From an uncultured Methanosarcinales archaeon (GTDB lineage Archaea; Nanobdellota; Nanobdellia; Woesearchaeales; JACPBV01), in NCBI GenBank assembly GCA_964577685.1, contig CAZNZT010000005.1, positions 4,185 through 68,184 on the forward strand: a stretch of 64,000 nt of DNA, written 5' to 3'. This document shows, in pieces, positions 5,791 to 50,113 of the stretch. The position numbers and the translations under genes are program-made. The notes under the pieces were generated by a model that saw only the letters and a list, made by a program, of their open reading frames with translations, did not search any database and was not told where the DNA came from. Positions within the stretch are counted from its first letter, which is position 1, and every line of letters starts with the position of its first letter.

Positions 5791-6435
5791 ATGGATATAT
5801 ACGAATATTTTGAATTGTTGATGTACATTGCAAAAAGAGGTGGGCTCTTTGGAGATTTGAAAAGCTCTACAACAAAGATATCCAAAGAGATAGGAATCTC
5901 ACAACAAACAGTAAGCAGGAAACTTAGGGAAATGGAAAAAGAGGGGTTTATCAAAAGAAAGGTTAGTCCTAGGGGTATTAGTGTAGGTATAGACAAGAAG
6001 GGGCAAGAACTACTATTTGAGATATACAAGAAGTTAGAAGGTCTTTTTGAGAGAAAAGAGAAAGAGATTTTTGGAATAGTCAAAAGCGGTATTGGAGAAG
6101 GTGCATATTATGTTTCAAAGGAAAAGTATCAAAGACAATTTGAAAAAAAGATTGGCTTCAGGGCTTTTCCTGGGACATTGAATTTGATGGTGAATAAAGC
6201 TAAACTAGCACAACTGATTATCACCAAAAAAGCAATCCTGATAAAGGGGTTTAAGACAAAAAAAAGAAGTTTTGGCTCACTGACTTGTTATAAGGCAAAG
6301 ATAAACAATGTCAGATGTGCAATGGTCATACCAGAAAGAACAAGACATAGTGAAAATATAATAGAGATTATAGCTCCTATGAGATTGCGTAGTTTTTTAA
6401 GACTTAAAGATGGAGACAAAGTAGTTTTGAGGTAG
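5791..6435 (+). CDS. ribK: CTP-dependent archaeal riboflavin kinase fused to an N-terminal winged-HTH (RbkR-like bifunctional kinase/regulator)
   Basis: C-terminal domain has the FRAFPGTLNLMV (PGTLN) motif of MJ0056-type archaeal riboflavin kinases. The N-terminal 85 aa (ISKEIGISQQTVSRKLREMEKEGFI) form a wHTH. Confidence 0.8.
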   Translation: MDIYEYFELLMYIAKRGGLFGDLKSSTTKISKEIGISQQTVSRKLREMEKEGFIKRKVSPRGISVGIDKKGQELLFEIYKKLEGLFERKEKEIFGIVKSGIGEGAYYVSKEKYQRQFEKKIGFRAFPGTLNLMVNKAKLAQLIITKKAILIKGFKTKKRSFGSLTCYKAKINNVRCAMVIPERTRHSENIIEIIAPMRLRSFLRLKDGDKVVLR

Positions 6436-6441
6436 ATAAAA

Positions 6442-6918
6442 ATGGCAAAGAAGATTGGGATTGCGGATACGATGTTTGCTAGAGTGGATATGTTTAAGAT
6501 TGTAAAAAAAGCATTAGATGATAGTATGGAATCGGATATAAAGCTAGAGAGATATACTGTACCGGGAATAAAAGACCTTCCAGTTGCATGTAAAAAATTA
6601 ATTGAAGAGTATAAATGTGACATATGTATGGCTTTGGGTATGCCGGGGGATAAGCCAATAGATAAAACTTGTGCTCATGAGGCATCTCTAGGAATAATAC
6701 AGGTTCAATTGATAACTAACAAGCATGTTATTGAGGTCTTTGTACATGCTGACGAAGGTAGAAATGAAAAAGAATTATTTGAAATAGTAGAGGATAGAAC
6801 ATATAAGCATACACTCAATGCTATTGGTCTATTAAAAGGCAAAGAAGAATTATCAAGAATGGCTGGAAGGGGAATAAGACAAGGAAAAGAGAATGTTGGA
6901 CAAATAAAGGGAAAATAA
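6442..6918 (+). CDS. ribC: Archaeal-type riboflavin synthase (RibC, lumazine-synthase-like fold)
   Basis: Strong end-to-end similarity to M. jannaschii riboflavin synthase (KKIGIADTMFARVDM..., VPGIKDLPVACKKL..., CAHEASLG..., IEVFVH...). Confidence 0.85.
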   Translation: MAKKIGIADTMFARVDMFKIVKKALDDSMESDIKLERYTVPGIKDLPVACKKLIEEYKCDICMALGMPGDKPIDKTCAHEASLGIIQVQLITNKHVIEVFVHADEGRNEKELFEIVEDRTYKHTLNAIGLLKGKEELSRMAGRGIRQGKENVGQIKGK

Positions 6919-6920
6919 AA

Positions 6921-7424
6921 ATGAAGGATGAATTTTTTGAAATAAAGAAGATCGGAATTATATCTGATACACATATACCGATAAGAGCAAAGAATATACC
7001 AGAAAAGGTTTTTAAAATATTTGAAAGCGTTGACTTGATTTTACATGCCGGTGACTTAGTAGAGCTGTATGTGATAGAAGAACTTGAGAAGATTGCACCA
7101 GTAGTTGCTGTAAAGGGAAACATGGACAGATTTATAGATAGTCTTCCTGAGAAGAGGATTATAAAGGTCAACAACAAATTTAAGATCGGGATAATACATG
7201 GCTCAGGGGATCCATTTAGTCTTCCTGTAAGAGTGAAGAAAGAGTTTAGGGATGTTGATTGTATTGTGTTTGGACATAGCCATAGAGCATTTAATGAGTT
7301 AGTAGATGGGATTCTATTATTTAATCCTGGTTCTGCTTGTGATACTGTCTTTACCTCTGTAAACTCTGTTGGTTTGTTATATATTGGTGATAAAATAAAA
7401 GGAGAGATAATAAGAATAAACTAA
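6921..7424 (+). CDS. Metallophosphoesterase, YfcE/MJ0936 family
   Basis: IGIISDTHIP...HAGD...GNMD...GHSH metallophosphatase motifs. Size 167 aa. Confidence 0.7.
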   Translation: MKDEFFEIKKIGIISDTHIPIRAKNIPEKVFKIFESVDLILHAGDLVELYVIEELEKIAPVVAVKGNMDRFIDSLPEKRIIKVNNKFKIGIIHGSGDPFSLPVRVKKEFRDVDCIVFGHSHRAFNELVDGILLFNPGSACDTVFTSVNSVGLLYIGDKIKGEIIRIN

Positions 7425-7435
7425 GGGGTGGTAAA

Positions 7436-7846
7436 ATGAATGAAAAACTTGGTTTTGTTGTATCTGAATATAATGCAGATATAACATACCTAATGAGCAA
7501 AGTTGGGGAAGAACATGCCCAGTTCCTAGGCGCGAAAGTGATTGAGACGATAAAGGTTCCTGGCGCGTTTGATATGCCCCTAGCTGTAAACTATCTATTA
7601 GAGAAAAATGATATAGATGGTGTTGTTTGCTTAGGTGCTGTGGTCGAGGGAGATACTGACCATGACCAGATTGTTGCCCACAATGCAGCCAGGAAGATAG
7701 TTGATTTGAGTATTAAATTTAAAAAGCCTGTTGCACTAGGAGTTTCTGGTCCTGGTATGAGTAGAGCAGATGGCGTAAAAAGAATAGAAAGTTATGCAAA
7801 AAGAAGTGTAGAGTCCGCCCTAAAGATGATTAGAAGACTAAAGTGA
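7436..7846 (+). CDS. ribH: 6,7-dimethyl-8-ribityllumazine synthase
   Basis: Lumazine synthase fold motifs (VVSEYNADIT..., KVPGAFDMPLA, VVCLGAVVEGDTDHD). AAGGGGTGG RBS-like motif upstream. Confidence 0.85.
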   Translation: MNEKLGFVVSEYNADITYLMSKVGEEHAQFLGAKVIETIKVPGAFDMPLAVNYLLEKNDIDGVVCLGAVVEGDTDHDQIVAHNAARKIVDLSIKFKKPVALGVSGPGMSRADGVKRIESYAKRSVESALKMIRRLK

Positions 7847-10155: not shown

Positions 10156-11670
10156 ATGAAAGGTATTACTAGCTTGATTGTGATTTGTTTATTCTTAACA
10201 AGTTTTGTTTATGCTGAAGAAATAGTTAGTTCTGTACCAGAAAAACCAATTCTTAAAAGTACCAATAGTGGAGAAGAAGCAAAGCCTATTATTAGAAATG
10301 TTGAAAAAGAAAATATAAAGAAAGGAGTAGGATCAATAGAAGAAAAGAAAGGGCCAATAAAGGCAATAATTTCTAGGAGGAACAAAGGAATCACCAGTCT
10401 AGGGAAGATAGATAATTGTATTACTAGATTGGTTGAAAAGGAGGGTATAAAAAAAGAGGAAGCATATAGAAGGTGCAGGTATAGGATTCTTAGAGCAAAA
10501 CCAATCAAAGAAAGGATAAGAGTTGTAAGGAAAGTTGATAATTTTCTTGATATCAAAAAAGGAGAGATAGAAGAAAAAATTAAGGAATGCAAAGATGAAG
10601 AATGTAAGAAAAAACTGGAGGATAGACTCGGGAAAATTGAGAAATTGGATAAAAAATTAGGACCTATTTTTAATAGGATAGAAGAAAAAAGACTAGAAAA
10701 ATTAAATGAGATTAAAGAACTAAAAGAAAAAGAAGGGTTTTCAAAGTTTAGGGGAACTCTAAATTTAAAAGCAAGAGCTATTAATAATATCATGTTAGAA
10801 AAGGCAAAAAAGAATTTTATTGAAGCAAAGAAAAGGTTTGAAAGAGCGAAGACAAGATATCTAGACGCTAGAAAAAGATTCTTAGAAAAAAAGAAGTTAA
10901 TAGGAGCATGCAAGGATAATGAATCTGATGAATGTAAAAAAGCAAAAGAAGAGATTATAGAAGACTCTAAAGAGTATTTAATCGGAATCGCTGACCAGAT
11001 GATTGAGTATATAAACAAGATAGAGGCCAAGGTTGAGTCTAATGATGATTTGTCAGAGGAAGAAGTTAATCAAATTATTGAAAACCTAGACGAATGGGCT
11101 AAGGAAGTTGAGGAGCTAAAAGTTAAAATAGAGGGCGCCGAGGACAAAGAGGACATAAAAGAGGCAGCAAAAAAACTAAGTGAATACTGGAAAAGAATAA
11201 AATATAGACTAGAAATAAAGGCAGCTAGGATTGTAAATGCGAGAATAGGGGGCATAATAATAAGGTCAAAATATTTAGAGATTAAATTAAACAGAATACT
11301 AGACAGACTAGCCGAAGATGGAGTAGATATATCAGAGATAGAAACACTAGTAGACAAATTCAATGCCAAGATAGAAGAGGCAAAGAAATTATATGAAAAG
11401 GCACGGAAAAGTTTCAAAGAGGCTGCTTTATTAAAGAGGGAAGCGGGTGAGAAAACAGAGGAAGAAATAGAAAAAATAAAAGAGTTGTCTTCTGCAGGAC
11501 ATGAAGCTATGAAGGGAGCACAAAGGGCTTTAAATGAAGCACAGAAAACATTAAGAGATATTATAATCAAAATAAAGAATATAGGAAGAGAGGATGTACT
11601 AGAGAAAACATCAATTGGCACAGGAGAGATAGAAAAGGAAATCTCTAGAGAGGAAGAGACGACAGAATAA
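10156..11670 (+). CDS. Secreted K/E-rich coiled-coil protein (signal peptide plus about 480 aa charged helical repeats)
   Basis: GGAGGTG RBS, ATG at 10156, signal-like MKGITSLIVICLFLTSFVYA, then low-complexity charged sequence. The antisense ORFs 10209..11030 and 11070..11621 are artefacts of this region. Confidence 0.5.
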   Translation: MKGITSLIVICLFLTSFVYAEEIVSSVPEKPILKSTNSGEEAKPIIRNVEKENIKKGVGSIEEKKGPIKAIISRRNKGITSLGKIDNCITRLVEKEGIKKEEAYRRCRYRILRAKPIKERIRVVRKVDNFLDIKKGEIEEKIKECKDEECKKKLEDRLGKIEKLDKKLGPIFNRIEEKRLEKLNEIKELKEKEGFSKFRGTLNLKARAINNIMLEKAKKNFIEAKKRFERAKTRYLDARKRFLEKKKLIGACKDNESDECKKAKEEIIEDSKEYLIGIADQMIEYINKIEAKVESNDDLSEEEVNQIIENLDEWAKEVEELKVKIEGAEDKEDIKEAAKKLSEYWKRIKYRLEIKAARIVNARIGGIIIRSKYLEIKLNRILDRLAEDGVDISEIETLVDKFNAKIEEAKKLYEKARKSFKEAALLKREAGEKTEEEIEKIKELSSAGHEAMKGAQRALNEAQKTLRDIIIKIKNIGREDVLEKTSIGTGEIEKEISREEETTE

Positions 11671-13134: not shown

Positions 13135-13635
13135 ATGAAAACAATAGATGAATTAAAGAATGAGCAAGGACAGCTTGATTCAAATGCTATAAAATATATA
13201 ATACCATATGACACGCCATTCCTTATGATAGACAAGGTATTGAGTTTAGATAAGACAAAGATAGTTGCGATAAAGAACACATCCGCGAATGAATATTACT
13301 TTAAGGGGCATTTTGCAGGTTTTCCTATTATGCCTGGTGCTTTGATAGTGGAAGGAATGGGTCAAGCAGCAACATTGCTTGTAAGATATAACATAGAAAA
13401 TCACTGGGAAAAAGAGGTACTGGCATACAGGATAAAAGATGCTAAATTCTCGGCTCCAACATTCCCTGGAGATACAATAAAATATGAGATAACACTTCTT
13501 GGTAAGGATGACAGGGGTGCTTTACTTTCTGGGAAGGCCATAGTTAATGAAAAAGTTGTGGCAGAGGCAACAATGATGTTGGCGGTAGTTGATAGGCGGG
13601 AGTTTAGAATAAAAGCATCTCCTGTTTATAAGTGA
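13135..13635 (+). CDS. fabZ: FabZ/FabA-like hotdog-fold 3-hydroxyacyl thioester dehydratase
   Basis: YFKGHFAGFPIMPGALIVEGMGQAA matches the FabZ His/Glu active-site region. GAGGTG RBS upstream. First gene of a co-directional block. Confidence 0.75.
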   Translation: MKTIDELKNEQGQLDSNAIKYIIPYDTPFLMIDKVLSLDKTKIVAIKNTSANEYYFKGHFAGFPIMPGALIVEGMGQAATLLVRYNIENHWEKEVLAYRIKDAKFSAPTFPGDTIKYEITLLGKDDRGALLSGKAIVNEKVVAEATMMLAVVDRREFRIKASPVYK

Positions 13636-13641
13636 TTAATC

Positions 13642-14772
13642 ATGAAGAGGTATGTAAAGGGCGTTGGTATGACTAAATTCAGTGTAGAATCAAGAACTAC
13701 ACAAGACATGGCTATTGAAGCCATAAGTCTTGCTTTAGATGATTCTAACCTTAACATAAATGATATTGAAGCTGTTGTTGTTTCAACAGTCGACACAAAA
13801 GTAAATACTGAAAGGCAGAGACATTATCCTGCTGTTCTTTCAAGTCTGCTAAAGAGAAAGATGCCTATTATCAGGGTTCCAGCTGTTTGTGGTGGGGGTG
13901 GTGCTGCATTTTGGACAGCATTAAGACTAAAATACAATAATATCCTTGTTATAGGTGTTGATAATGTGTTAGCAGGGCCTACACCAATAATCACAAAAGA
14001 GATTATGAACGCTGGAGAAAATCTCTGGGAACAAGAAGAGGGGCTTAATTTTCCTGGACAAAATGCACTAGTTGCTCAGCAACATATGTTAAAATACGGA
14101 ACTACGCATGATGACTTGGCTTTAATATCCTATAAAAACCACCTTCATGGTAGCATGAATCCTAAAGCAAGATTTTATGGTAAAAAGGTAACTCTAGAAG
14201 AAATAAAGAAGGCACCAATCATAGCTTCACCATTCAATTTATATGATTGTTCAATATCTGTAAATGGGGCTGCAGCTGTTGTAGTATCAAGGGATAAAAC
14301 AGACATTAAGGTTATAGGGTCTGCCCTAGCTACGGATTATTTACCTCCATTTGAGAGGCCTGATATAACCACATGGCAATCAAGCGTAGAAGCTGGAAAA
14401 AAGGCATTTAAGGAAGCAGGAGTAGAACCAAGCGATATAGATGTGGCAGAAATCCATGATGCGTTTACAATTGTTGAACTTATATCATATGAAGACCTTG
14501 GATTTTGTAAGAAAGGAGAAGGCGGAAAACTGGTAAGAGATGGTTATGTAAACCTTGATGGAAAAATGCCTGTAAATACATCTGGGGGATTAAAGGCAAG
14601 AGGCCACCCCATATCTCCTACTGGAGTTGCCCAAATTGTTGAGATTGTTGACCAGTTAAGGGACAGATGTGGTGACCGTCAAGTTAATAATCCAAAAATA
14701 GGTTTAACCCAAAATATAGGTGGGGCTGGAGGTACAGCAACTGTTCATATTTTTAGAAAAATAGCGGGATGA
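13642..14772 (+). CDS. Thiolase-superfamily protein (archaeal DUF35-associated thiolase / SCP-x-like), paralogue A
   Basis: MKRYVKGVGMTKF start, catalytic-Cys region IIRVPAVCGGGGAAF, C-terminal GGLKARGHPISPTG..NIGGAGGT. Sits immediately upstream of a DUF35 gene. Confidence 0.75.
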   Translation: MKRYVKGVGMTKFSVESRTTQDMAIEAISLALDDSNLNINDIEAVVVSTVDTKVNTERQRHYPAVLSSLLKRKMPIIRVPAVCGGGGAAFWTALRLKYNNILVIGVDNVLAGPTPIITKEIMNAGENLWEQEEGLNFPGQNALVAQQHMLKYGTTHDDLALISYKNHLHGSMNPKARFYGKKVTLEEIKKAPIIASPFNLYDCSISVNGAAAVVVSRDKTDIKVIGSALATDYLPPFERPDITTWQSSVEAGKKAFKEAGVEPSDIDVAEIHDAFTIVELISYEDLGFCKKGEGGKLVRDGYVNLDGKMPVNTSGGLKARGHPISPTGVAQIVEIVDQLRDRCGDRQVNNPKIGLTQNIGGAGGTATVHIFRKIAG

Positions 14773-15908
14773 TAAAGATGGCAAAGATAATAAGGTGGAT
14801 ATGCGAGAAATGTAATAAGAAATGGATTTATCCAATAAGTAGGTGTCTATATTGCAATGGGGAAATAAAAAAGCAGATAGGTATGAAAATAAAGGTTATA
14901 GGATTCACAAGGATTCACATTCCGTGCCCTCCACATCCAATAGTACCCTACAATGTTCTTCTTCTGGAAGATGAATATGGGAATAGAATGCCAAAAAAAA
15001 CAATAAAGGATTACAATATAGGGGATACATACGAAGATATTCCATCTAAGGAAGAAAATGCAATAGCAATAACAAAGATAAAATATGATGTTTATGAAGC
15101 TGTTAAAGAAGCATTAGAGCTGATAGGGGATATTGAAGTAGATAGGACAAACAAAATACTTATTAAACCAAATTTGAGTATTCCTGGGTATCCATATCTT
15201 GGTATTGGAACGCATCCAGAAGTAATGAGGGGTTTATTGCGATACTTAATTGAAAGAGGAGCTAATCCAAAGAATATAACAATAGCTGAGCAAAGCTTCT
15301 TCTTTCCATTTGATAAGGCTATTGCAAAATCAAGAATCAATCAAATAGTAAAGGAGTTTGGTGTCAACCTGGTTGATTTAAGTAAAACAGAGTTCATAGA
15401 GAAAAAAGAGAGGGAATTTGTATTTAGGGTGTCTAAGATAGTTTATGATTTTGATTTGATTTTTAATGTGCCTGTTATTAAAACAGATATGTTGCTTGGT
15501 ATAGACGGGGCGTTTGAAAATCTAACGAGATTTTTATCTAAGGAAAACTTTAATGAGTTTGTAAGGGATATTAAAAAAGCTATAGGTGCTCTTGCTGTTT
15601 TACCTAACATATTACCAAGGTTTATCACGATAGGGGATGGAACCATAGGTATGCAGGGTAATGGTCCAGCAGAACATGGTGAGCCAGGATTCTATAATAT
15701 GATATTTGCAGCGAGAAATCCAGTTGTACATGATAAAATTGTACAGGAGGTATTATGTTTAAGAAGACTACCTTATGTTGAGTTAGCAGGAAAACTTGGT
15801 ATTGGTGAATATGAAGTATCAAAGATAAAAGTTATTGGAAATGAGTTAGATGCTGTTAGGAGGGATATAAAACAACCAATAGGCTCAAAGCTAATTAAAA
15901 AGGACTAA
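14769..15908 (+). CDS. DUF35 (rubredoxin-like Zn ribbon plus OB-fold) N-terminus fused to a roughly 280-aa C-terminal domain resembling DUF362
   Basis: CEKCNKKWIYPISRCLYCNG zinc ribbon followed by an OB-like segment, then KPNLSIP... and ITIGDGTIGMQGNGPAEHGEP motifs (assigned to DUF362 from memory). A single uninterrupted ORF. The ATG overlaps the upstream stop (ATGA). Confidence 0.55.
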   Translation: MIKMAKIIRWICEKCNKKWIYPISRCLYCNGEIKKQIGMKIKVIGFTRIHIPCPPHPIVPYNVLLLEDEYGNRMPKKTIKDYNIGDTYEDIPSKEENAIAITKIKYDVYEAVKEALELIGDIEVDRTNKILIKPNLSIPGYPYLGIGTHPEVMRGLLRYLIERGANPKNITIAEQSFFFPFDKAIAKSRINQIVKEFGVNLVDLSKTEFIEKKEREFVFRVSKIVYDFDLIFNVPVIKTDMLLGIDGAFENLTRFLSKENFNEFVRDIKKAIGALAVLPNILPRFITIGDGTIGMQGNGPAEHGEPGFYNMIFAARNPVVHDKIVQEVLCLRRLPYVELAGKLGIGEYEVSKIKVIGNELDAVRRDIKQPIGSKLIKKD

Positions 15909-15909
15909 G

Positions 15910-17037
15910 ATGTACATAAAAGGAGTTGGTATGACCAAATTTGGTATTTCTGGCAAGTTCTCACAGATGTTAGCATATGAAGCTACATTAGAAGCATTAA
16001 ATGATGCGGATATTAACTTTAAGGATATAGATGCTGTTGTTTGCTCTAGTTTAGAGTGGTTCTTCTCAATAGAAAAACAGAGGCACTTTGCAGCTTTGTT
16101 GGCTTCTGTTTTCAAAACCCATAAGCCAATAATTCGAGTGCCTGCTGCCTGTGCTGGTGGTGGCGCTGCCTTATGGGTAGCACAACAATTAGGTTACGAC
16201 AATGTATTAGTTGTTGGAGTAGAAAAACTGATGACATGCAAATCGGAAAGTATAACAGATGAATTTATGATGGCTGCTGAGAGCAAATGGGAGCAAGTAG
16301 AGGGGCTTAATTTTCCTGGGCAAAACGCACTAGTTGCTCAACAATATTTGGAAAAATATAAAAAAACGACTACAGAACATTTGGCTTTAATCTCTTTTAA
16401 GAATCACTCAAACGCATTACTAAATCCAAAAGCGAGATTTTATGGTAGAAAGGTAACTCTAGAAGAAATAAAAAATTCTCCAATAATATGTTCCCCGTTA
16501 AGACTCTATGATTGTTCAATATCTGTTGATGGAGCAGCTGCATGTGTTGTTACAAATGAAAAAACAGATATCAAAATAATTGGTTCTGATTTATGTGCTG
16601 AATACCTACCAACATGGGAAAGGGAAGATAGCCTTAGATGGGAGGGAACAATTATTAGCTCCAAAAATGCGTTCAACCAAGCAGGAGTAGAACCAAGTGA
16701 TATAGATGTGGCAGAAATCCATGATGCGTTTACAATTGTTGAGCTGATAGCTTATGAAGACCTTGGATTCTGTAAGAAGGGAGAGGCTTATAAAAAAATT
16801 GAAGAGGGTTATTTTAATCTTGATGGAAAGATGCCTGTAAATACATCTGGGGGATTAAAAGCAAAGGGACATCCTGTCTCTGCAACCGGATTAGCCCAGA
16901 TATATGAAATAGTAAAACAGCTTAGGGGGGAGGCTAAGGATAGGCAGGTTTCAAAAGCGAAGATAGGGCTAGCCCATAATATCGGTGGGGCAGGAGGAAC
17001 TGTTACTTGTCATATCCTAAAGAAAATCTGTGGTTAA
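15910..17037 (+). CDS. Thiolase-superfamily protein, paralogue B
   Basis: MYIKGVGMTKFG..., IIRVPAACAGGGAAL. The C-terminal half is about 90% identical at nucleotide level to paralogue A. Confidence 0.75.
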   Translation: MYIKGVGMTKFGISGKFSQMLAYEATLEALNDADINFKDIDAVVCSSLEWFFSIEKQRHFAALLASVFKTHKPIIRVPAACAGGGAALWVAQQLGYDNVLVVGVEKLMTCKSESITDEFMMAAESKWEQVEGLNFPGQNALVAQQYLEKYKKTTTEHLALISFKNHSNALLNPKARFYGRKVTLEEIKNSPIICSPLRLYDCSISVDGAAACVVTNEKTDIKIIGSDLCAEYLPTWEREDSLRWEGTIISSKNAFNQAGVEPSDIDVAEIHDAFTIVELIAYEDLGFCKKGEAYKKIEEGYFNLDGKMPVNTSGGLKAKGHPVSATGLAQIYEIVKQLRGEAKDRQVSKAKIGLAHNIGGAGGTVTCHILKKICG

Positions 17038-17055
17038 AAATTAAAGGTGATAAAA

Positions 17056-17796
17056 ATGGGTTTAAAAGGAAAAAATGCTTTAATAACAGGTTCTGCAAGG
17101 GGATTGGGAAAAGAAATGGCTCTAACATTAGCAAAGGAAGGTTGTAATATAATAGTTAATGACTTGGAAGATATGAAAGAAGAAGCGATAAAAACAGTGG
17201 AAGAGATAAAAAAACTAGGTGTAGAGTCTGATTTTGTTCCTGCAGATGTATCTGATTTTGAGAGTTGTAAAAAGATGGCTGAAACAGTAAAGCAAAAATT
17301 TGAAAAAGTTGACATACTGATAAACAATGCAGGCATAACGAAAGACAGAACATTAAAAAAGATGGTCCCGGATGAATGGTACCCAGTGATTAATGTAAAT
17401 CTAAATAGCCTATACAATGTAACCCATAATATATTGGAACTAATACCAGAAGGAGGGAGAATAATCAATATAAGTTCGGTAGCAGGTATAGCAGGAAATT
17501 TTGGACAAACGAATTATGCAGCAACAAAAGCGGGGGTGATTGGATTTACAAAATCGTTAGCAAAAGAAGTAGGCAAAAAAAAGATTACTGTCAATGCTGT
17601 TGCACCTGGTTTTATTAAGTCACCTATGACTGATAAAATACCAGTAGAGTTATTAGCAAATATTATTGAACTAATACCATTGAAAGAAATGGGGCAACCG
17701 GAAGATGTTGCTAATGCTGTAAAGTTTCTTGCTTCAGATGAAGCAAGATACATATCTGGCACTGTATTAAGGGTTGATGGAGGAATTGCTTTGTAA
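17056..17796 (+). CDS. fabG: 3-oxoacyl-(ACP/CoA) reductase, SDR family (FabG-like)
   Basis: TGSARGLG Rossmann motif, NNAGI, YAATKAGV catalytic Y/K. The track start 17047 is GTG; the in-frame ATG at 17056 is preferred. Confidence 0.8.
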   Translation: MGLKGKNALITGSARGLGKEMALTLAKEGCNIIVNDLEDMKEEAIKTVEEIKKLGVESDFVPADVSDFESCKKMAETVKQKFEKVDILINNAGITKDRTLKKMVPDEWYPVINVNLNSLYNVTHNILELIPEGGRIINISSVAGIAGNFGQTNYAATKAGVIGFTKSLAKEVGKKKITVNAVAPGFIKSPMTDKIPVELLANIIELIPLKEMGQPEDVANAVKFLASDEARYISGTVLRVDGGIAL

Positions 17797-17856
17797 CATA
17801 AGAAAGTTAAAGCAATATTTATAAAGCAATTAAAATTTGTGATTTTAGGGGATATC

Positions 17857-19008
17857 ATGAATTTTGATTTTACACCAGAACAATTGGCAATAAAAAAAAT
17901 GATTAGAGAATTCGCTGAATCAGAGATAAAACCATACGCGGAAGAGATTGACAAGGAAAAGAAGTTTCCTGAAAAACAATTAAAAAAACTAGCTAAGCTA
18001 GGGATAATGGGAATGACAATCCCAGAGGAATACGGTGGAAGCCAAATAGATTGTGTATCACAAACAATAATAATGGAAGAGTTAAGCAGGGTTTGTAACT
18101 CAACTGCTGTTTCTTTTGGTGCTCACACAAGTTTGGCATGTAACCCAATAACAAACTATGGGACAAAAGAACAAAAGGAGAAATACCTACCATTACTTGC
18201 TTCTGGGAAGTATCTTGGTGCTTTCTCTTTAACAGAGCCAAGTGCTGGTTCTGACGCAGCAAATATACAAACAACGGCTATAAGGGACGGGGATGAATAT
18301 ATCATAAATGGTTCTAAAATATTTATAACAAATGGTGCAAAGGCAGATCTAGTAAATGTTGTTGCAATGACAGACAAAGCAAAAAAACATAATGGGATTT
18401 CTATTTTTATTGTTGAAACAAAGACTCCTGGTTTTGAAGTAGGAAAGATTGAGGATAAGTTAGGACTATGCGGTTCTTGTACAGCAGAACTTGTATTCAA
18501 GGATATGAGAGTTCCAAAAGAAAACTTATTAGGAGGAATAGAGGGGCAGGGTTTCAAACAAACTATGTGGACATTGGACTCTGGTAGAATCGGTATAGGC
18601 GCCCAAGGGGTTGGTATTGCACAAGCTGCTTTTGATGAATCACTAAAATATGTGAAAGAAAGAGAACAATTTGGAAGAAAACTGTTCAAATTCCAAGCCA
18701 TACAATTCATGCTTTCTGACATGGCAATGAAAATAGATGCTGCAAGGTTATTATGCCTAAGAGCAGCAGATATGAAAGAAAAAGGAAAAAGGTATGTTAA
18801 AGAGGCTGCCATGGCAAAGTTGTTTGGTAGTGAGGTAGCAATGGAAGTAACAAGAAAGGCTATACAGATACATGGAGGATACGGATTTACTAAGGATTAT
18901 CCTGTAGAACGATTCTATAGAGATGCAAAAATTACGGAAATATATGAAGGCACATCCGAAATCCAAAGGCTAGTTATAGCTGCAGAACTGTTGGGAAGAG
19001 GTTTCTGA
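17857..19008 (+). CDS. Acyl-CoA dehydrogenase (short/medium-chain type)
   Basis: MNFDFTPEQ...FAE N-terminus, the [16 protein letters not shown] signature, and a C-terminal [14 protein letters not shown] tail. The track start 17839 is GTG; ATG 17857 is preferred. Confidence 0.85.
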
Positions 19009-19010
19009 AG

Positions 19011-19805
19011 ATGAGAATAATAGTGTGTATTAAACAAGTTCCAGATACTAATGAAGTTAAAATTGACCCAAAAAAAGGTACGCTAATTAGAGAGGGTATC
19101 CCTACGATTATGAATCCTGAAGATAAACATGCATTGTTGGAAGCAATAGAGATTAAGAATAAAACAAAAGGTAAGGTCATAGCACTCTCAATGGGGCCTC
19201 CACAAGCAGAGGAAGTATTAAGAGAGGCTCTAGCTTTAGGTGCAGATGAAGCAATATTGCTTTGTGATAGAGCTTTTGCTGGTTCTGACACATGGGCTAC
19301 AGCTAATGCTTTGGGAACAGCTATAGAAAAGATAGGCAACTATGATTTGCTGCTGTTTGGCAGACAGGCTATTGATGGTGATACAGCCCAGGTAGGTCCG
19401 CAAACAGCAGAATTTCTTAGTATCCCTCAGATAACTTATGCCAGAAAAATTGAGATTAAAGACAATAGTGTGATAGTAGAAAGGCAAATGGAAGATGGCT
19501 ATGAGATTATAAGAGGTAACTTACCTTGCTTAATAACCTGTACTTCAGATATTAATGAAATAGAATACCCAACATTAAGAGGGATAAAGCAAGCCTACAG
19601 AAATAAAAAAGTAAAGGTATGGAGTGCAGATGATATAAAAGCAAATAAATCAAAAATAGGTTTGCTAAACAGCCCTACAAGGGTAAAAAGAATATTCACA
19701 CCTCAACCAAGGGGTCAAGGTCAACTTCTTAGAGGCCCAACAAAAGAGGTAGTGAAAAAAATTGTTAATCTGCTAAAAGAGAAAGAACTAATACGGGCGT
19801 TTTAG
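19011..19805 (+). CDS. etfB: Electron transfer flavoprotein beta subunit
   Basis: MRIIVCIKQVPDT start, 264 aa, immediately followed by etfA. Confidence 0.85.
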   Translation: MRIIVCIKQVPDTNEVKIDPKKGTLIREGIPTIMNPEDKHALLEAIEIKNKTKGKVIALSMGPPQAEEVLREALALGADEAILLCDRAFAGSDTWATANALGTAIEKIGNYDLLLFGRQAIDGDTAQVGPQTAEFLSIPQITYARKIEIKDNSVIVERQMEDGYEIIRGNLPCLITCTSDINEIEYPTLRGIKQAYRNKKVKVWSADDIKANKSKIGLLNSPTRVKRIFTPQPRGQGQLLRGPTKEVVKKIVNLLKEKELIRAF

Positions 19806-20966
19806 ATGAAAGTAAAAATATCTCCAATATGTCCTGAATCAAGTCTTAACCTAGGTGGTGTTATATTAATAAGGGGAGAAGACTTCAAAGAAGTTCCAGA
19901 TATTCCTGAAGTCAGGAATGCTGTTGATAAGGGGTACTTAGAGGTACTAAAAGAAGAGAAGAAAAAAACAAAAAGTGTGAAAAAAGAAGGTAGCGAGGTA
20001 TTGGTGTTTGCAGAACAAAGAAATAATAAAATTGCTAGGGTTGTTTTTGAACTTTTAGGAAAGGCGAGGGAACTTGCAGATAAATTAAATGTGAAACTAG
20101 CTACAATTCTATTGACAGAGAAAGACAACGGATTATCTAACCAATTAATCCAATATGGTGCTGATAGGGTTTATTTAGCGGAGAACTCCTTACTTAAGAA
20201 CTATCAAACTGAGTTGTATACCAAAGTCATTGTTGAACATATTAAAAAAACAAAACCACAAATAGTAATATATGGTGCAACTAATATTGGGCGTGATTTG
20301 GCTCCAAGAATTGCACAAAGAATAACTACTGGACTAACTGCTGATTGCACAGGATTGGATATTACAGAAGAAGGTTTACTTCTACAAACAAGGCCTGCTT
20401 TTGGTGGAAACATTATGGCACAGATTGTTTGTCCAAAGCATAGACCACAAATGGCTACAATAAGACCTGGTGTAATGAAAGCAAAGGAAAAAGACAAAAA
20501 AAGAAATGGGGAAACAATCAGAGTTGAAGTGAAAATATCAGAAAAAGACAAAAAAACAGAGATCATAAAAATAATTAGAGAAACAAAGAAAAAAGTTAAC
20601 TTAGAAGAAGCGAAGATAATAGTCTCAGGTGGCAGAGGATTAGGAAAAAAAGAAAATTTCAAACTTATAGAAGAATTAGCTTCTCTGTTAAATGCTGAAG
20701 TAGGGGCTTCAAGGGCTGCTGTCGATGCGGGTTGGATTTCTAAAGAACATCAAGTTGGACAAACCGGAAAAACAGTAAGGCCAAAACTTTACCTTGCTAT
20801 AGGGATATCTGGTTCTATACAGCACAAAGCAGGGATGCAAAATTCTGATTTAATCATTGCCATTAATAAAGACCCAGAAGCACCTATATTCCAAATAGCG
20901 GACTATGGCATCGTAGATGACTTGTTTAAGATTGTTCCAGAAATGATTAAGCAATTGAAACAATAA
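19806..20966 (+). CDS. etfA: Electron transfer flavoprotein alpha subunit (with a K-rich insertion)
   Basis: C-terminal FAD-binding region YLAIGISGSIQHKAGM. 386 aa. Confidence 0.8.
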   Translation: MKVKISPICPESSLNLGGVILIRGEDFKEVPDIPEVRNAVDKGYLEVLKEEKKKTKSVKKEGSEVLVFAEQRNNKIARVVFELLGKARELADKLNVKLATILLTEKDNGLSNQLIQYGADRVYLAENSLLKNYQTELYTKVIVEHIKKTKPQIVIYGATNIGRDLAPRIAQRITTGLTADCTGLDITEEGLLLQTRPAFGGNIMAQIVCPKHRPQMATIRPGVMKAKEKDKKRNGETIRVEVKISEKDKKTEIIKIIRETKKKVNLEEAKIIVSGGRGLGKKENFKLIEELASLLNAEVGASRAAVDAGWISKEHQVGQTGKTVRPKLYLAIGISGSIQHKAGMQNSDLIIAINKDPEAPIFQIADYGIVDDLFKIVPEMIKQLKQ

Positions 20967-20998
20967 ATTTTATAATTAAAAAGCTATTTTTTTCTTTT

Positions 20999-21658
20999 AT
21001 GTTACATCCAATACAAAGGATAATAATTCCCCCTCTACTTAAATTAGTATGGATCAAAAAAATAGAGGGAATAAAAAATATACCCTTAGATGGTAAATTC
21101 GTTGCTACTCCGAATCATCAAAGTTTCTTTGATGATTGGATTGTACCAAGTATAATAGCAGTTTACCTCAATAGAGAACTTCATATGTATGTCAACAGAA
21201 AATATTTTAGAAATCCCTTGTTTAGATGGTATCTTAACCATCATAAGTGCATACCTGTAGAAGTATATAATAGTAAAGATAAAAAAGAAGTAAATGAGAA
21301 GGCATTTTGGATGGCTATGCAATATTTGGAAAAGAATGAGCCAATATGTATATACCCAGAGGGACATAGAAGTAGGGATGGGAAATTACAAATTGGAAAA
21401 CTTGGTGCAGCAAGATTGGCGATAACAGCAAGGGTTCCAGTGTTACCTATTGGCATAATTGGAACAAGAGAAGTATTACCTAAAGGAAAAATAATACCAA
21501 AAATAAAGAAGGTTATAACTGTAAAGATTGGTAAGCCTATTTATTTTAAAGAATACTACGAAAAAGGAGCAAGTAAAAAAATATTAATAAAGGCCACAAA
21601 TAAAATAATGAGAGAAATCGGAAAATTAATAGGACAGAAATACAAAAATGGTGTATGA
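20999..21658 (+). CDS. plsC: PlsC-family lysophospholipid/glycerol-phosphate acyltransferase, paralogue 1
   Basis: HX4D motif NHQSFFDD and YPEGHRS (EGTR-like) block. 219 aa. Confidence 0.7.
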   Translation: MLHPIQRIIIPPLLKLVWIKKIEGIKNIPLDGKFVATPNHQSFFDDWIVPSIIAVYLNRELHMYVNRKYFRNPLFRWYLNHHKCIPVEVYNSKDKKEVNEKAFWMAMQYLEKNEPICIYPEGHRSRDGKLQIGKLGAARLAITARVPVLPIGIIGTREVLPKGKIIPKIKKVITVKIGKPIYFKEYYEKGASKKILIKATNKIMREIGKLIGQKYKNGV

Positions 21659-22277
21659 AATATCAAAAAATACACTTGGTTTGATTGTAAATCTTTATGT
21701 GAAAGAGATAAGGGGGCTAGAGAATGTTCCAAGGAGAGGTCCCTACATAGTTGCAGCAAATCATTCTAGCTATATGGACCATTTAATTTTACAAAATATA
21801 TGGGCAAGAAAGTTTAATTTGGTCCTGCATTTTCTTGCTAAGAAAGAACACTTTGTAGGCTTACAGAAGATATGGCACAAACACTTTAAAGCTATACCAA
21901 TAGACAGAAAAAGAGGAGGAAAAACAGCCTTAAGGAAAGCTGTTAGTCTACTTAAAAGAGGAGAAGTTATTGGTATATACCCCGAAGGCACTAGAACATT
22001 AACCGGAAAACTTCAAAAGGGCAAAACAGGTGCTATTAGGCTAGCCTTAGCTTCTAGGGTCCCAATATTACCTGTAGGTATAATAGGAACATTTGAGATG
22101 TTACCAAAGGGCAAGATAATACCAAGATTTAAAAGGGCAAAGGTTAATATAGGGAAAGTTATGCATTTTGATAAATACTATGGCAAGAAGATTGATAAAA
22201 AAACATTAAGGCTTCTGACTACAAGGCTTATGAAAGAGATAGGAAGACTATGTAAAAAAAGATACATTTTTGATTAA
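21648..22277 (+). CDS. plsC: PlsC-family acyltransferase, paralogue 2
   Basis: HX4D motif NHSSYMDH and YPEGTRT block. Its ATG overlaps the end of paralogue 1 by 11 nt. Confidence 0.7.
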   Translation: MVYEISKNTLGLIVNLYVKEIRGLENVPRRGPYIVAANHSSYMDHLILQNIWARKFNLVLHFLAKKEHFVGLQKIWHKHFKAIPIDRKRGGKTALRKAVSLLKRGEVIGIYPEGTRTLTGKLQKGKTGAIRLALASRVPILPVGIIGTFEMLPKGKIIPRFKRAKVNIGKVMHFDKYYGKKIDKKTLRLLTTRLMKEIGRLCKKRYIFD

Positions 22278-22278
22278 A

Positions 22279-23259
22279 ATGGAGGTTTCTGTAATAGGCG
22301 CAGGTGGCTGGGGGACAACCTTAGCAAATCTGTTAGCAGAAAAAGGAATAGAAACTATATTGTGGGCCAGAGAACCAGAAGTAGTTAGGGAAATAGAAGA
22401 AAATAGAACAAATAATCAATTTTTACCAGGAGTTAAACTTTCTATTAAAATAAAGCCAACAAACAATCTAGAGAATGCTGTAAGAGACAAGAAAATCATA
22501 ATTATGGCTATTCCATCACAGTTTTTAAGAGTCATGGCAAAAAAAATAACAGGATATATCAAAACAGATGCTATTGTAGTAGATGTAGCAAAAGGGATAG
22601 AAGAAGGAACATTCAAGAGGATGTCCCAAATACTAGAAGAGGAGTTACCTTCTGGAGTGAGAATAATTGCTCTATCTGGACCGAACCATGCGGAGGAGGT
22701 AAGTAGAAAGATACCAACGGCTACAGTAATAGCTTCAAAGCATTCTGAAATATTAACAAAAATAAAGGAACTCTTAGAAGTAGAGTACTTCAAGGTTTAT
22801 CCACATGATGATATAATTGGAGTGGAAATATGTGGAGCGATAAAGAATATAAGCGCTATTGCTACAGGCGTTTGTGATGGTCTTGGCTTAGGGAATAATT
22901 CAAAGGCTTCTATAATCACTCTTGGTTTAATGGAGATGAGCAAAGTAGGTAGATTTTTTGGAGCAAGGAGAAGTACTTTTTATGGTCTAGCAGGAGTAGG
23001 TGATTTAGTAGCTACATGCATGTCAAAATATTCAAGGAATAGATTCGTAGGAGAAAAGATAGCTGAAGGCAAGAGTCTTGATGAAATAAAAAAAGAAATG
23101 CATGGTATGATTGCAGAAGGAGTAAAAACAACAAAAGCTGTCTATGAGTTATCAAAGAAGGAGAATATGGATTTACCTTTAACAAATCAGGTCTATAAAG
23201 TTTTATATGAAAAAAAAGAGTTAAAAAGTGCAATAAAGGATTTAATAGAATTAATATAG
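22279..23259 (+). CDS. gpsA: NAD(P)H-dependent sn-glycerol-3-phosphate dehydrogenase (bacterial-type GpsA)
   Basis: VIGAGGWGTTLA, GPNHAEE, GAIKNISAIA, GDLVATC, SRNRFVG, EGVKTTK and YKVLYEK all align with E. coli GpsA blocks. The track start 22270 is TTG; ATG 22279 is preferred. Confidence 0.85.
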   Translation: MEVSVIGAGGWGTTLANLLAEKGIETILWAREPEVVREIEENRTNNQFLPGVKLSIKIKPTNNLENAVRDKKIIIMAIPSQFLRVMAKKITGYIKTDAIVVDVAKGIEEGTFKRMSQILEEELPSGVRIIALSGPNHAEEVSRKIPTATVIASKHSEILTKIKELLEVEYFKVYPHDDIIGVEICGAIKNISAIATGVCDGLGLGNNSKASIITLGLMEMSKVGRFFGARRSTFYGLAGVGDLVATCMSKYSRNRFVGEKIAEGKSLDEIKKEMHGMIAEGVKTTKAVYELSKKENMDLPLTNQVYKVLYEKKELKSAIKDLIELI

Positions 23260-23277
23260 TAACATGACAAACAAGTT

Positions 23278-23880
23278 TTATTCTTCTGTGAAATCTTCAA
23301 TTGTTTCTTTTAACTCTTCATTTGGTTTTAATATCCCTCTGTTCCTGAGATATTCTCTTGCTAATATCCAAAAGAATAAGCCCAAACTCTTTTTTCCTTT
23401 ATTATTACAAGGGATTACTAAATCAATATTATTTGTTTGATTGTTTGTGTCACATAGCGCTACAACCGGGATTCCAACATTTATTGCATCCATTAAAGCA
23501 TTTCTATCTGGCCACGAGTCTGTAATTAATATAACCTTCGCTTCATGGTAGATGTCCAAATTTGGATTTGTCAACATACCTGGGGGGTATCTTCCGGCTA
23601 CGACTTTAATACCTGTAACCTTACCCAACATTCTAACTGGTTTCCATCCATTCTCTCTCCTACTGACAACTAGTATCTCATCTGGCTTATATCTTGAAAG
23701 AAATTTTGTAGCTATTCTTATTCGTTCATCTATTTTTTGTAAGTTCAGAACACTCAACCCATCTGGTCTGGTTTTATAAATAAAATCTTCCATATATTTT
23801 GTTTTGAACTTTGTACCTATATGTATTCCAGACTTTAGATACACATCTGTAGGTACTAAAAATTCTTGTGATTCTGCCAT
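23278..23880 (-). CDS. rps2: Ribosomal protein uS2 (archaeal S2)
   Basis: YLKSGIHIGTKFKTKYMEDFIYKTRPDGLSVLNLQKIDERIRIA matches the archaeal S2 N-terminal region. Confidence 0.85.
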   Translation of the reverse strand: MAESQEFLVPTDVYLKSGIHIGTKFKTKYMEDFIYKTRPDGLSVLNLQKIDERIRIATKFLSRYKPDEILVVSRRENGWKPVRMLGKVTGIKVVAGRYPPGMLTNPNLDIYHEAKVILITDSWPDRNALMDAINVGIPVVALCDTNNQTNNIDLVIPCNNKGKKSLGLFFWILAREYLRNRGILKPNEELKETIEDFTEE

Positions 23881-44460: not shown

Positions 44461-44489
44461 CTTTATATAACCTCCTTTCACTTAAATAT

Positions 44490-45464: not shown

Positions 45465-45551
45465 TCTTAATCACTCTTGAATATTAACTCTTGGTATATG
45501 ATTATATAAACTTTTCGATTTTTTGATTTTTATGATATATTCATAAAAATA

Positions 45552-46559: not shown

Positions 46560-46569
46560 TTTTATATGT

Positions 46570-48795: not shown

Positions 48796-48820
48796 TTTAG
48801 AGTAAAAATTTGGGCTTGAG

Positions 48821-50032: not shown

Positions 50033-50113
50033 AAATATCACCTTTTAGAGTAACATCTACCTTATTCAAATAATAAATAGATTTATATATAAATGTTGTT
50101 ATTTTCGAATTGA

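Follow-up and report, generated by a model that had tools for sequence, protein, structure and literature searches.

The 64-kb window analysed here (the whole 64,000-nucleotide stretch, taken from contig CAZNZT010000005.1) carries at positions 13135-23259 of the forward strand eleven tightly packed co-directional genes, which the open reading frame (ORF) listing places in the order FabZ, thiolase A, a DUF35-like/DUF362 fusion, thiolase B, FabG, an acyl-CoA dehydrogenase (ACAD), EtfB, EtfA, PlsC1, PlsC2 and GpsA. We give somewhat better than an even chance to the reading that these genes form a lipid-biosynthesis cluster fixed in one lineage of Woesearchaeota, in which a hybrid fatty acid synthesis based on coenzyme A (CoA) and independent of acyl carrier protein (ACP) would feed the acylation of sn-glycerol-3-phosphate (G3P). 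Archaea build their membranes from isoprenoid ethers on sn-glycerol-1-phosphate and bacteria from fatty-acyl esters on G3P, and eukaryotes, descended from archaea, have membranes of the bacterial type. This split is central to early cell evolution and to the origin of eukaryotic membranes. Bacterial-type lipid genes found earlier in uncultured archaea were isolated and were dismissed as patchy or as possible binning artefacts, whereas here they stand in a conserved, genome-anchored cluster that in relatives spans carboxylase and primer supply, elongation, G3P synthesis and acylation.

Identities were assigned by Pfam and NCBIfam searches with bit-score cutoffs, and by fold for the N-terminus of gene 3; the family assignments from Pfam and NCBIfam are firm. 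They bear out the central observation of an earlier note on this DNA, that a thiolase/DUF35, FabG, FabZ and ACAD/Etf set is joined to two PlsC genes and GpsA, and its co-directional block of eleven ORFs stands as listed, its title of a ten-gene operon being a miscount. The ACP-independent biosynthetic route which that note proposed is also the best-supported reading, strengthened by the carboxylase, biotin ligase, thioesterase and 2-oxoisovalerate:ferredoxin oxidoreductase (VOR) genes of relatives. From family membership we infer every reaction step described below, and with it the use of CoA rather than ACP substrates, the biosynthetic direction, the chain length, the division of labour between the acyltransferases, the lipid product and a role in the membrane.

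The condensing module consists of two thiolases that flank the fusion protein. Thiolase A (13642..14772, 376 aa) is of the SCP2/archaeal type, the class partnered by DUF35 proteins, and matches PF22691 (171 bits), PRK06064 (357 bits) and the Methanothermococcus acetoacetyl-CoA thiolase model AcCoTHIOL_METTL (293 bits), with 7yvy, 4yzo and 6esq_A as its best PDB matches. Thiolase B (15910..17037, 375 aa), identified from Pfam and NCBIfam, is a paralogue sharing 62% identity with thiolase A, and the two form separate orthologous clades in close relatives. Both belong to the SCP2/archaeal type ('Thiolase_C_1') with PRK06064 and AcCoTHIOL_METTL as best models, and both keep the catalytic Cys and the HDAF and GHP motifs.

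Between them lies gene 3 (14778..15908, 376 aa), in which Pfam recognizes DUF362 alone (96 bits). A Pfam scan of the N-terminus with E-values up to 10 and an alignment-profile search of the PDB detected no DUF35 at the level of sequence. An AlphaFold model (AF2, 28 homologues; pLDDT 86.6, pTM 0.88) was compared with known structures using Foldseek. Its N-terminus (approximately residues 1-105), a zinc ribbon followed by an OB fold, matches DUF35 chains at E = 6e-5 to 3e-4, namely ChsH2-DUF35 (6ok1_B), BbsA (7pxp), PhlB (5m3k) and 6esq_E-G; the last is the DUF35 protein of the M. thermolithotrophicus thiolase/HMG-CoA synthase complex, at 22% identity to gene 3. The C-terminal domain matches LarA-family racemase structures (7s91, 6d6z and 5huq), which agrees with the placement of DUF362 and DUF2088 in one Pfam clan (PMC11770544). 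The model thus supports gene 3 as a DUF35-like domain fused to a DUF362 domain of LarA-like fold. That is to say, the "DUF35 fusion" named previously holds by predicted fold and not by sequence-level detection, and its partner is DUF362. The fusion family numbers approximately 261 proteins, nearly all labelled Woesearchaeota or Nanoarchaeota, and its zinc-ribbon cysteines are lost in some members. One related locus (related loci are denoted by L and a number) encodes a longer DUF362 protein between its two thiolases (L086, 18563-20032; 489 aa versus approximately 375 aa).

In the proposed route, the whole of elongation would proceed on CoA thioesters without ACP. The two SCP2-type thiolases, joined by the DUF35-like domain with its fused DUF362/LarA-like module, would condense acyl-CoA with acetyl-CoA, and malonyl-CoA may replace acetyl-CoA where a carboxylase adjoins the cluster. 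Archaeal thiolase/DUF35 pairs are classically the acetoacetyl-CoA thiolase/HMG-CoA synthase complex (6esq), which offers the alternative that this pair serves isoprenoid synthesis through mevalonate and that the remaining cluster is unrelated to it. We regard that role as very improbable and rejected it, since HMG-CoA synthase was not found in or near the cluster and the lineage uses the methylerythritol phosphate (MEP) pathway, the only one reported in Woesearchaeota (PMC8421398, PMC8204110); the MEP gene dxr stands beside gpsA in L085. FabZ and FabG, moreover, always flank the thiolase/DUF35 pair.

Reduction and dehydration of the condensed chain would fall to enzymes of R-specific biosynthetic families. 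FabG (17056..17796, 246 aa), a 3-ketoacyl reductase of the short-chain dehydrogenase/reductase type, scores 225 bits with PF13561 and passes the TIGR01830 equivalog at 301.2 bits against a cutoff of 297.75. FabZ (13135..13635, 166 aa), a 3-hydroxyacyl dehydratase of hot-dog fold, scores 82.8 bits with PF07977 and passes the NF000582 equivalog at 122.8 bits against a cutoff of 113; its MaoC score of 22.5 bits lies under the cutoff, which makes it a FabZ/FabA-type and not a MaoC-type dehydratase. In every related locus the block opens with FabZ. In this scheme FabG would reduce 3-ketoacyl-CoA to (R)-3-hydroxyacyl-CoA, which FabZ would then dehydrate.

The cluster holds no gene for an enoyl-CoA reductase of the medium-chain dehydrogenase/reductase (MDR) type, and the candidate reductase is the ACAD together with EtfAB. 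The ACAD (17857..19008, 383 aa), a Bcd-type acyl-CoA dehydrogenase or enoyl-CoA reductase, contains all three ACAD domains, has AcrC as its best NCBIfam match (538 bits) and matches best in the PDB to 5ol2_C, the Bcd of the bifurcating C. difficile Bcd-EtfAB complex (473 bits), with A. fermentans Bcd (4l1f) as a further match. EtfB (19011..19805, 264 aa) scores highest with subunits of bifurcating complexes, namely CarD (6fah_B, 296 bits), C. difficile EtfB (5ol2_B, 262 bits), A. fermentans EtfB (4kpu_B, 218 bits) and LctB (7qh2_B, 204 bits), as opposed to 110 bits with the non-bifurcating human ETFB (1efv_B), and it has the motif GRQAIDGDTAQVG in common with bifurcating EtfB proteins. EtfA (19806..20966, 386 aa) contains PF01012 and the FAD domain PF00766 and has AcrA as its best NCBIfam match (408 bits).

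Judged by sequence, this EtfAB is of the bifurcating type; with it, the Bcd-type dehydrogenase would reduce enoyl-CoA with NADH and probably co-reduce ferredoxin. The physiological role of Bcd-EtfAB and Car complexes is to reduce enoyl-CoA with NADH while also reducing ferredoxin, and a 2018 survey found bifurcating Bcd in Bacteria only (PMC6085437). Huang et al. (2021) doubted bifurcation by the Woesearchaeota Bcd-EtfAB orthologues (PMC8421398). The first 64 residues of EtfA (19806-19997) are the remnant of a decayed 2x[4Fe-4S] ferredoxin domain. Because its cysteine motifs are lost in the window, L090 and L166 and intact in the orthologue of L085 (metagenome-assembled genome, MAG, YT1_182), where two CxxCxxCxxxC motifs remain, the electron path to ferredoxin may differ among relatives.

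The last three genes would carry the acyl chains onto glycerol. GpsA (22279..23259, 326 aa), an NAD(P)H-dependent G3P dehydrogenase, contains PF01210, PF07479 and PF20618, scores 405 bits with the NCBIfam subfamily model NF000942 (cutoff 257) and also passes NF000940; it would convert dihydroxyacetone phosphate to G3P. Its homologues in Woesearchaeota share 54-75% identity with it, those in clusters or loci labelled bacterial 48% or less. When GTDB was scanned with GpsA, using a single genome for each species, eleven Woesearchaeota-type loci came up at 54-65% identity and bacterial GpsA proteins reached no more than 47%, with Clostridia and Dehalococcoidia at 42-47%. An exhaustive search of representatives clustered at 50% identity placed the nearest cluster outside Woesearchaeota at 52%, its named members carrying the label Promethearchaeota; KSB1, Firmicutes and 'Methanobacteriota' came next at 44-48%, and neither search allows a donor to be named. 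The GpsA genes labelled Promethearchaeota (Asgard; L167-L169, P0241 and P0391) sit on short contigs beside a P-type ATPase and major facilitator superfamily transporters, with PlsC not nearby, and may reflect either gene sharing between Asgard and DPANN archaea or mis-binning.

Two PF01553 acyltransferases precede GpsA. The GpsA-proximal PlsC2 (21648..22277, 209 aa; 109 bits) and its orthologues keep all canonical PlsC motifs, NHxSYxD, IPIDR and PEGTR (NHSSYMD, IPIDR and PEGTR in the window). Its sole PDB match is T. maritima PlsC (5kym, E = 4e-18), and since this alignment begins by pairing residue 21 with chain residue 66, the N-terminal two-helix anchor of the T. maritima enzyme is missing from PlsC2. 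The GpsA-distal PlsC1 (20999..21658, 219 aa; 81 bits) is divergent: it keeps HX4D and EGxR, and throughout its orthologue group motif II reads IPV(E/Y)V (IPVEV in the window), with a 6-aa insertion and no Arg. The two PlsC genes noted previously are thus right as to family and not equivalent as paralogues, and we did not adopt simple labels of glycerol-3-phosphate acyltransferase and lysophosphatidate acyltransferase (LPAAT) for the pair, given that PlsC1 lacks the motif II arginine. The proximal and distal proteins form separate orthologous clades across the lineage with different conserved motifs, which argues for long-maintained distinct functions. Together the pair would transfer acyl groups to yield lyso-phosphatidate and then phosphatidate. 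With the LPAAT-like motifs on PlsC2, the divergent PlsC1 is the candidate for the first step. That the two divide the acylations between them in this way is plausible, and PlsC1 may alternatively act on some other acceptor.

Conservation of this arrangement was examined in the GTDB species loci and in a metagenome scan with the fusion protein, which returned 24 loci with the full fusion. GpsA is followed by a convergent gene for archaeal ribosomal protein S2 (rpS2) in 11/11 GTDB species loci, and the PlsC pair lies upstream in ten of them. In the window, rpS2 (23278..23880, reverse strand, PF00318) begins 18 nt downstream of gpsA and serves as a synteny anchor outside the pathway; the immediate gpsA-rpS2 succession is found in L003-L013, L086, L089, L090, L092, L093, L099, L105, L109 and L166. 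The full eleven-gene order recurs in L090, L093, L095, L166 and a 400-kb JGI contig, and L089, on a contig that begins only at the fusion gene, matches it from there on. Despite rearrangement, PlsC and GpsA lie no more than 10 kb from the fusion in 10 of the 11 fusion loci with enough flank, the exception being the most divergent locus (L110, 34% identity). In six loci (L010, L011, L086, L099, L105 and L109) rpS2 separates the acyl-chain block from the PlsC-GpsA block, and two (L006 and L092) keep the thiolase/FabG/FabZ block and PlsC/GpsA with ACAD-Etf absent at that position. The synteny recurs in dozens of related loci, and this conserved association of acyl-chain block, PlsC pair, GpsA and rpS2 argues for a lipid-biosynthesis cluster.

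Relatives also carry genes at the cluster that could supply the pathway. Directly upstream of FabZ, 13 related loci and the JGI contig encode a carboxyltransferase (PF01039) and a biotin carboxyl carrier protein, often with a 4HBT thioesterase, and in the same loci biotin ligase and biotin carboxylase are transcribed divergently from FabZ. A three-subunit 2-oxoacid:ferredoxin oxidoreductase lies between the fusion gene and thiolase B, complete in L094, L095, L098 and L166 and partial at contig ends in L096, L097 and L100, with at least the alpha subunit present in six loci. Its alpha subunit passes the VorB model for 2-oxoisovalerate:ferredoxin oxidoreductase (495 bits versus 399), and an enzyme of this type would supply acyl-CoA primers.

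Other accessory genes in or beside the cluster (L093 16670-18241, L099 13772-15250, L011 10613-11572 and L109 15188-16165) encode B12-binding radical S-adenosylmethionine (SAM) enzymes weakly like the hopanoid or 'lipid biosynthesis' families, a patatin-like lipase and SAM methyltransferases, and may serve lipid modification or turnover. In L085 (1-3606 and 11238-12844) four CoA-transferase-family genes and a weakly FabK-like NMO-family gene stand upstream of the cluster, with DUF212 (PF02681) and dxr between gpsA and rpS2.

Given that bacterial-type enzymes predominate in the cluster, that the data are metagenomic and that Coleman et al. (2019) raised such a concern for archaeal PlsC and GpsA (PMC6431249), we considered whether a bacterial contaminant or chimera had been joined to an archaeal contig. 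The chance of such an artefact is practically negligible. RtcA lies 49 nt upstream of the cluster, and two independent assemblies (ENA ERZ27248458 and Logan SRR7051284) show the identical gene order up to and including RtcA and rpS2 on either side, so that the RtcA|FabZ and GpsA|rpS2 junctions are each recovered in two samples. More than 20 loci, drawn from separate studies and in some cases lying on contigs of 187-400 kb, show GpsA next to archaeal rpS2, and the fusion protein family is essentially confined to Woesearchaeota. Codon usage of the cluster correlates with that of housekeeping genes at r = 0.96, and its GC content at third codon positions (0.23-0.32 versus 0.22-0.28) is indistinguishable from theirs. 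Contamination, which the earlier note had named as grounds for refutation, is thus rejected: no break in codon usage was seen, the assembly is repeated and the synteny recurs.

GpsA and the DUF362 protein both find their closest homologues among proteins labelled Woesearchaeota or Nanoarchaeota, which makes the host a Woesearchaeon of the DPANN archaea; its GC content is approximately 32%. The archaeal background described previously was recovered by Pfam (Hjc, EndA, FEN1, PAN, RFC, PheRS alpha and beta, and TyrRS), its generic "archaeal" being narrowed to this lineage, and further archaeal neighbours are Pelota, rpS2 and a CTP-dependent riboflavin kinase, alongside a shikimate operon. The reported absence of egsA and GGGPS holds throughout the 64-kb window by Pfam, and the same scans found no UbiA, CarS, MEP genes or ketoacyl-ACP synthase (KAS) there. 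A phmmer search with E. coli ACP gave no match in the window or in any Woesearchaeota locus, its only matches being at DUF362 loci outside Woesearchaeota. Several GTDB MAGs titled 'uncultured Methanosarcinales archaeon' (L004, L005, L007 and L011) have PlsC-PlsC-GpsA-rpS2 arranged as in Woesearchaeota and an rpS2 that shares 70-81% identity with the one in the window. Their labels look wrong; so does that of one fusion homologue on a 1.5-kb contig labelled Thermodesulfovibrionia.

ACAD, ETF and thiolase are core enzymes of beta-oxidation, DPANN archaea are generally lipid auxotrophs drawing on their hosts (literature cited in PMC8421398 and PMC5059525), and some relatives carry a patatin-like phospholipase (L011) or crotonase genes (L094, L086 and L109) in their clusters. 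The cluster could then degrade or remodel host-derived bacterial lipids, with PlsC and GpsA re-esterifying the salvaged chains. We consider such scavenging distinctly unlikely. FabG and FabZ have R stereochemistry, and the window contains no S-specific 3-hydroxyacyl-CoA dehydrogenase, crotonase or acyl-CoA synthetase by Pfam. Neither acyl-CoA synthetase nor the S-specific dehydrogenase (PF02737) occurs in the neighbourhoods examined; no stand-alone 3HCDH was seen, the PF02737 matches being secondary ones on GpsA. The Etf belongs to the bifurcating type, an ETF:quinone oxidoreductase did not turn up, Woesearchaeota are reported to lack a respiratory chain that could take the electrons (Huang et al., PMC8421398), and the linkage to carboxylase and biotin ligase points to synthesis.

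A second alternative runs the chain in the forward direction as fermentation. Here, much as clostridia form butyrate or caproate, thiolase, FabG, FabZ and Bcd-EtfAB would dispose of NADH by turning acetyl-CoA into butyryl-CoA or a medium-chain acyl-CoA, with reduced ferredoxin as a gain; GpsA would provide another outlet for NADH, and the tie to membrane lipids would be incidental or minor. Huang et al. (2021) read the Bcd-EtfAB of Woesearchaeota subgroup J as redox balancing together with Rnf and a [FeFe] hydrogenase (PMC8421398), short-chain Bcd enzymes are the nearest to the ACAD, L085 has four CoA-transferase genes ahead of the cluster, and 2-oxoacid:ferredoxin oxidoreductase genes fall within the cluster of relatives. 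This account is unlikely in our view, if less so than scavenging. The cluster has R-specific FabG and FabZ in place of the Hbd and Crt of a butyrate pathway, Ptb and Buk were not seen, and the carboxylase, biotin ligase and thioesterase that adjoin it in the 13 loci and the JGI contig are unneeded for butyrate. The two acyltransferase groups and GpsA, furthermore, remain linked through several rearrangements, and L006 and L092 retain the thiolase/FabG/FabZ genes and PlsC/GpsA without ACAD-Etf there.

Several features favour synthesis as the direction of the pathway. FabG and FabZ are R-specific, and the enzymes that an S-specific degradative route would use are missing from the window. EtfB and the ACAD are closest to CarCDE and Bcd-EtfAB, physiologically enoyl-CoA reductases. 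Synthesis, unlike degradation or pure fermentation, would call for a thioesterase, a primer source and a carboxylase with a dedicated biotin ligase, such as relatives have. Finally, the N-terminus of gene 3 has the DUF35 fold and both thiolases belong to the DUF35-partnered class, as in the fatty acid synthesis (FAS) system of S. acidocaldarius.

Several observations weigh against a biosynthetic lipid cluster. The nearest characterised relatives of the ACAD are short-chain enzymes (Bcd, SCAD), and the products could for this reason be C4-C8 acids instead of chains of membrane length. The window itself has no carboxylase, thioesterase or VOR genes. The role of the carboxylase adjacent to the cluster in relatives is left unexplained because the S. 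acidocaldarius SCP2-type thiolase did not use malonyl-CoA (bioRxiv 10.1101/2024.07.05.601840), and the CoA-transferase genes upstream in L085 also fit fermentation. Neither PlsC paralogue has a transmembrane segment (maximum 19-residue Kyte-Doolittle values of 1.45 for PlsC1 and 1.55 for PlsC2) or the two-helix membrane anchor of T. maritima PlsC, and PlsC1, without its motif II arginine, is a non-canonical member of the family. PlsB, PlsX, PlsY, CdsA and head-group enzymes were not seen in the window or the neighbourhoods examined. A UbiA prenyltransferase is reported near MEP genes in Woesearchaeota genomes (Castelle et al., PMC8204110), so that isoprenoid lipids may also be made.

A stronger form of the biosynthetic reading holds that this lineage has crossed the 'lipid divide' and makes an ester-linked fatty-acyl G3P membrane de novo. 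The hybrid pathway would then use a thiolase/DUF35 complex, extended by a new DUF362/LarA-like module, for condensation on CoA esters, the bacterial FabG and FabZ, and Bcd-EtfAB coupled to ferredoxin as the enoyl reductase, together with an acyl-CoA carboxylase and a specialised, soluble PlsC pair. We hold this claim as a tentative one, more doubtful than probable. Huang et al. (2021) reported the lineage to be without GGGPS and DGGGPS and judged it probably 'unable to synthesize membrane lipids' (PMC8421398); because subgroup J, reported without archaeal lipid transferases, includes YT1_182 (L003/L085 here), the archaeal route is missing where the cluster is present. If the claim were true, bacterial-type membrane lipids would occur in a natural archaeon, together with an ACP-free FAS that conserves energy during elongation. 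The compact, clonable set of 11 to approximately 20 genes makes ACP-independent synthesis coupled to phospholipid assembly directly testable, and the cluster bears on the roles of the DUF35 scaffold and DUF362 and on whether some DPANN archaea are less host-dependent than assumed.

The cluster combines two known kinds of system, archaeal CoA-dependent FAS and the bacterial-type phospholipid genes of uncultured archaea, and its function as such a combination is what we infer. For the first kind, Dibrova et al. reportedly proposed an archaeal CoA-dependent fatty acid pathway in 2014. The FAS of S. acidocaldarius has been shown experimentally: a KT/DUF35 complex binds an R-specific FabG-like reductase (ACR) and a hot-dog (MaoC) dehydratase, an MDR enoyl-CoA reductase completes the set, and the R-specificity of the FabG-like reductase and the hot-dog dehydratase separates synthesis from beta-oxidation (Schmerling et al. 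2024, bioRxiv 10.1101/2024.07.05.601840). The present cluster resembles that system in its SCP2-type condensing thiolase, adjacent DUF35-fold partner, R-specific FabG-family reductase and hot-dog dehydratase, and in having no ACP or KAS gene. In contrast, a DUF362/LarA-like domain is fused to the DUF35 of the present cluster, a thiolase paralogue stands on either side of the fusion, a FabZ-type dehydratase takes the place of the MaoC-type one, Bcd with bifurcating-type EtfAB replaces the NADPH-dependent MDR enzyme, and the genes are linked to GpsA, two PlsC and, in relatives, an acyl-CoA carboxylase. DPANN, PlsC and GpsA are unmentioned by Schmerling et al. (2024).

Compared with the Firmicutes Bcd/EtfAB complexes (5ol2, 4kpu/4l1f) and CarCDE (6fah), the cluster has the same ACAD-EtfB-EtfA order, best matches among these proteins and the same GRQAIDGDTAQVG motif in EtfB, and the EtfA N-terminal ferredoxin domain, intact in L085 and decayed in the window, recalls CarE. 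It differs in being archaeal and in lying among FabG, FabZ, thiolase, PlsC and GpsA genes instead of in an Hbd-Crt-Thl butyrate operon. With the bacterial FAS-II and phosphatidate pathway it has in common the FabG and FabZ equivalogs, GpsA and the canonical PlsC2; in relatives, acyl-CoA carboxylase and biotin ligase genes lie beside it. It departs from that pathway in its thiolase condensation and in the divergent PlsC1 as candidate for the first-step acyltransferase; KAS (FabH/F/B; PF00109, PF02801), FabD and FabI were not found in the window or the neighbourhoods examined.

For the second kind of system, surveys that include those of Yokobori et al. (2016), Coleman et al. (2019) and, reportedly, Villanueva et al. 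in 2017 describe phospholipid genes of bacterial type (GpsA, PlsC, PlsY) in several uncultured archaea, among them MG-II/III, Lokiarchaeota and DPANN. Yokobori et al. (2016) reported GpsA in Woesearchaeota and the absence of glycerol-1-phosphate dehydrogenase (G1PDH) in DPANN (PMC5059525), and Coleman et al. (2019) listed GpsA for Woesearchaeota and PlsC for DPANN, considering them patchy and unlikely to take part in making membranes (PMC6431249). Our loci agree with these surveys in carrying bacterial-type homologues in a lineage reported without G1PDH, GGGPS and DGGGPS. They differ in that genes reported singly appear as a conserved tandem triad beside rpS2, linked to an acyl-chain module and a carboxylase.

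Other parts of the cluster have also been published. Castelle et al. (2021) noted that 'bacterial fatty acid synthesis genes including G3PDH' sit together with genes of the MEP pathway (PMC8204110), Zhang et al. (2024) found FabG/FabI/FabZ and cfa genes in Woesearchaeota MAGs (PMC10936187), Huang et al. (2021) described Bcd adjacent to EtfAB in Woesearchaeota subgroup J, which includes YT1_182 (PMC8421398), and Sahonero-Canavesi et al. (2022) found GeR homologues in Woesearchaeota (bioRxiv 10.1101/2022.04.21.487849). The novelty first claimed for this operon was therefore overstated as regards the single pieces, GpsA, PlsC, FabG/FabZ and Bcd-Etf. Full-text literature searches returned no description of the integrated cluster, of a DUF35-DUF362 fusion flanked by two thiolases, of the carboxylase/VOR linkage, of two acyltransferase groups, of the rpS2 anchoring or of the genes as a single path leading from acyl-CoA to phosphatidate, and a search of the supplements of Castelle et al. 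(2021) for details of the cluster found nothing.

With database-supported starts from public gene calls, the spacers between successive genes are 6, 5, 1, 18, 60, 2, 0, 32, -11 and 1 nt, all at most 60 nt. The ATGA overlaps described previously appear only with longest-ORF starts, as with the alternative start of the fusion gene at 14769, and the database-supported starts give none. Further alternative starts are GTG at 17047 for FabG, GTG at 17839 for the ACAD and TTG at 22270 for GpsA. Inspection of the region 5' of FabZ reveals a GAGGTG Shine-Dalgarno-like element in the window, and a conserved TATA-like box with a GGGGTG ribosome-binding site in relatives. The 32-nt spacer between EtfA and PlsC1 (20967..20998) contains a TATA-like box, TTTATAAT, and a T-run, and is a candidate internal promoter; the window, L089, L090 and L003 all keep a TTTATA(A/T)T element some 25 nt ahead of the ATG of PlsC1. 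This conserved element suggests two promoters, one for fabZ to etfA and the other for plsC1-plsC2-gpsA, which agrees with the modular rearrangements in relatives. The short spacers accord with the single transcription unit proposed in the earlier note, whereas the internal TATA-like box and the separation of the modules in relatives speak against it.

Elsewhere in the window, an ORF of 504 aa (10156-11670, forward strand) without a Pfam family lies just upstream of RtcA in a region of unusually high GC and AT skew (0.45 and 0.31), at the position where relatives have their acyl-CoA carboxylase genes directly upstream of FabZ. A further ORF of 593 aa (35031-36812, reverse strand) likewise has no Pfam family. 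Five consecutive ORFs of approximately 309-741 aa without a Pfam match form a co-directional, uncharacterised block on the reverse strand at 43531-50041, between the RFC and Pelota genes (43531-44481, 44490-45464, 45552-46559, 46570-48795 and 48821-50041). On the forward strand, positions 5791-7846 hold a riboflavin-related group that encodes a fusion of a helix-turn-helix domain and the CTP-dependent riboflavin kinase, a short protein like 6,7-dimethyl-8-ribityllumazine (DMRL) synthase, a metallophosphoesterase and a second DMRL synthase.

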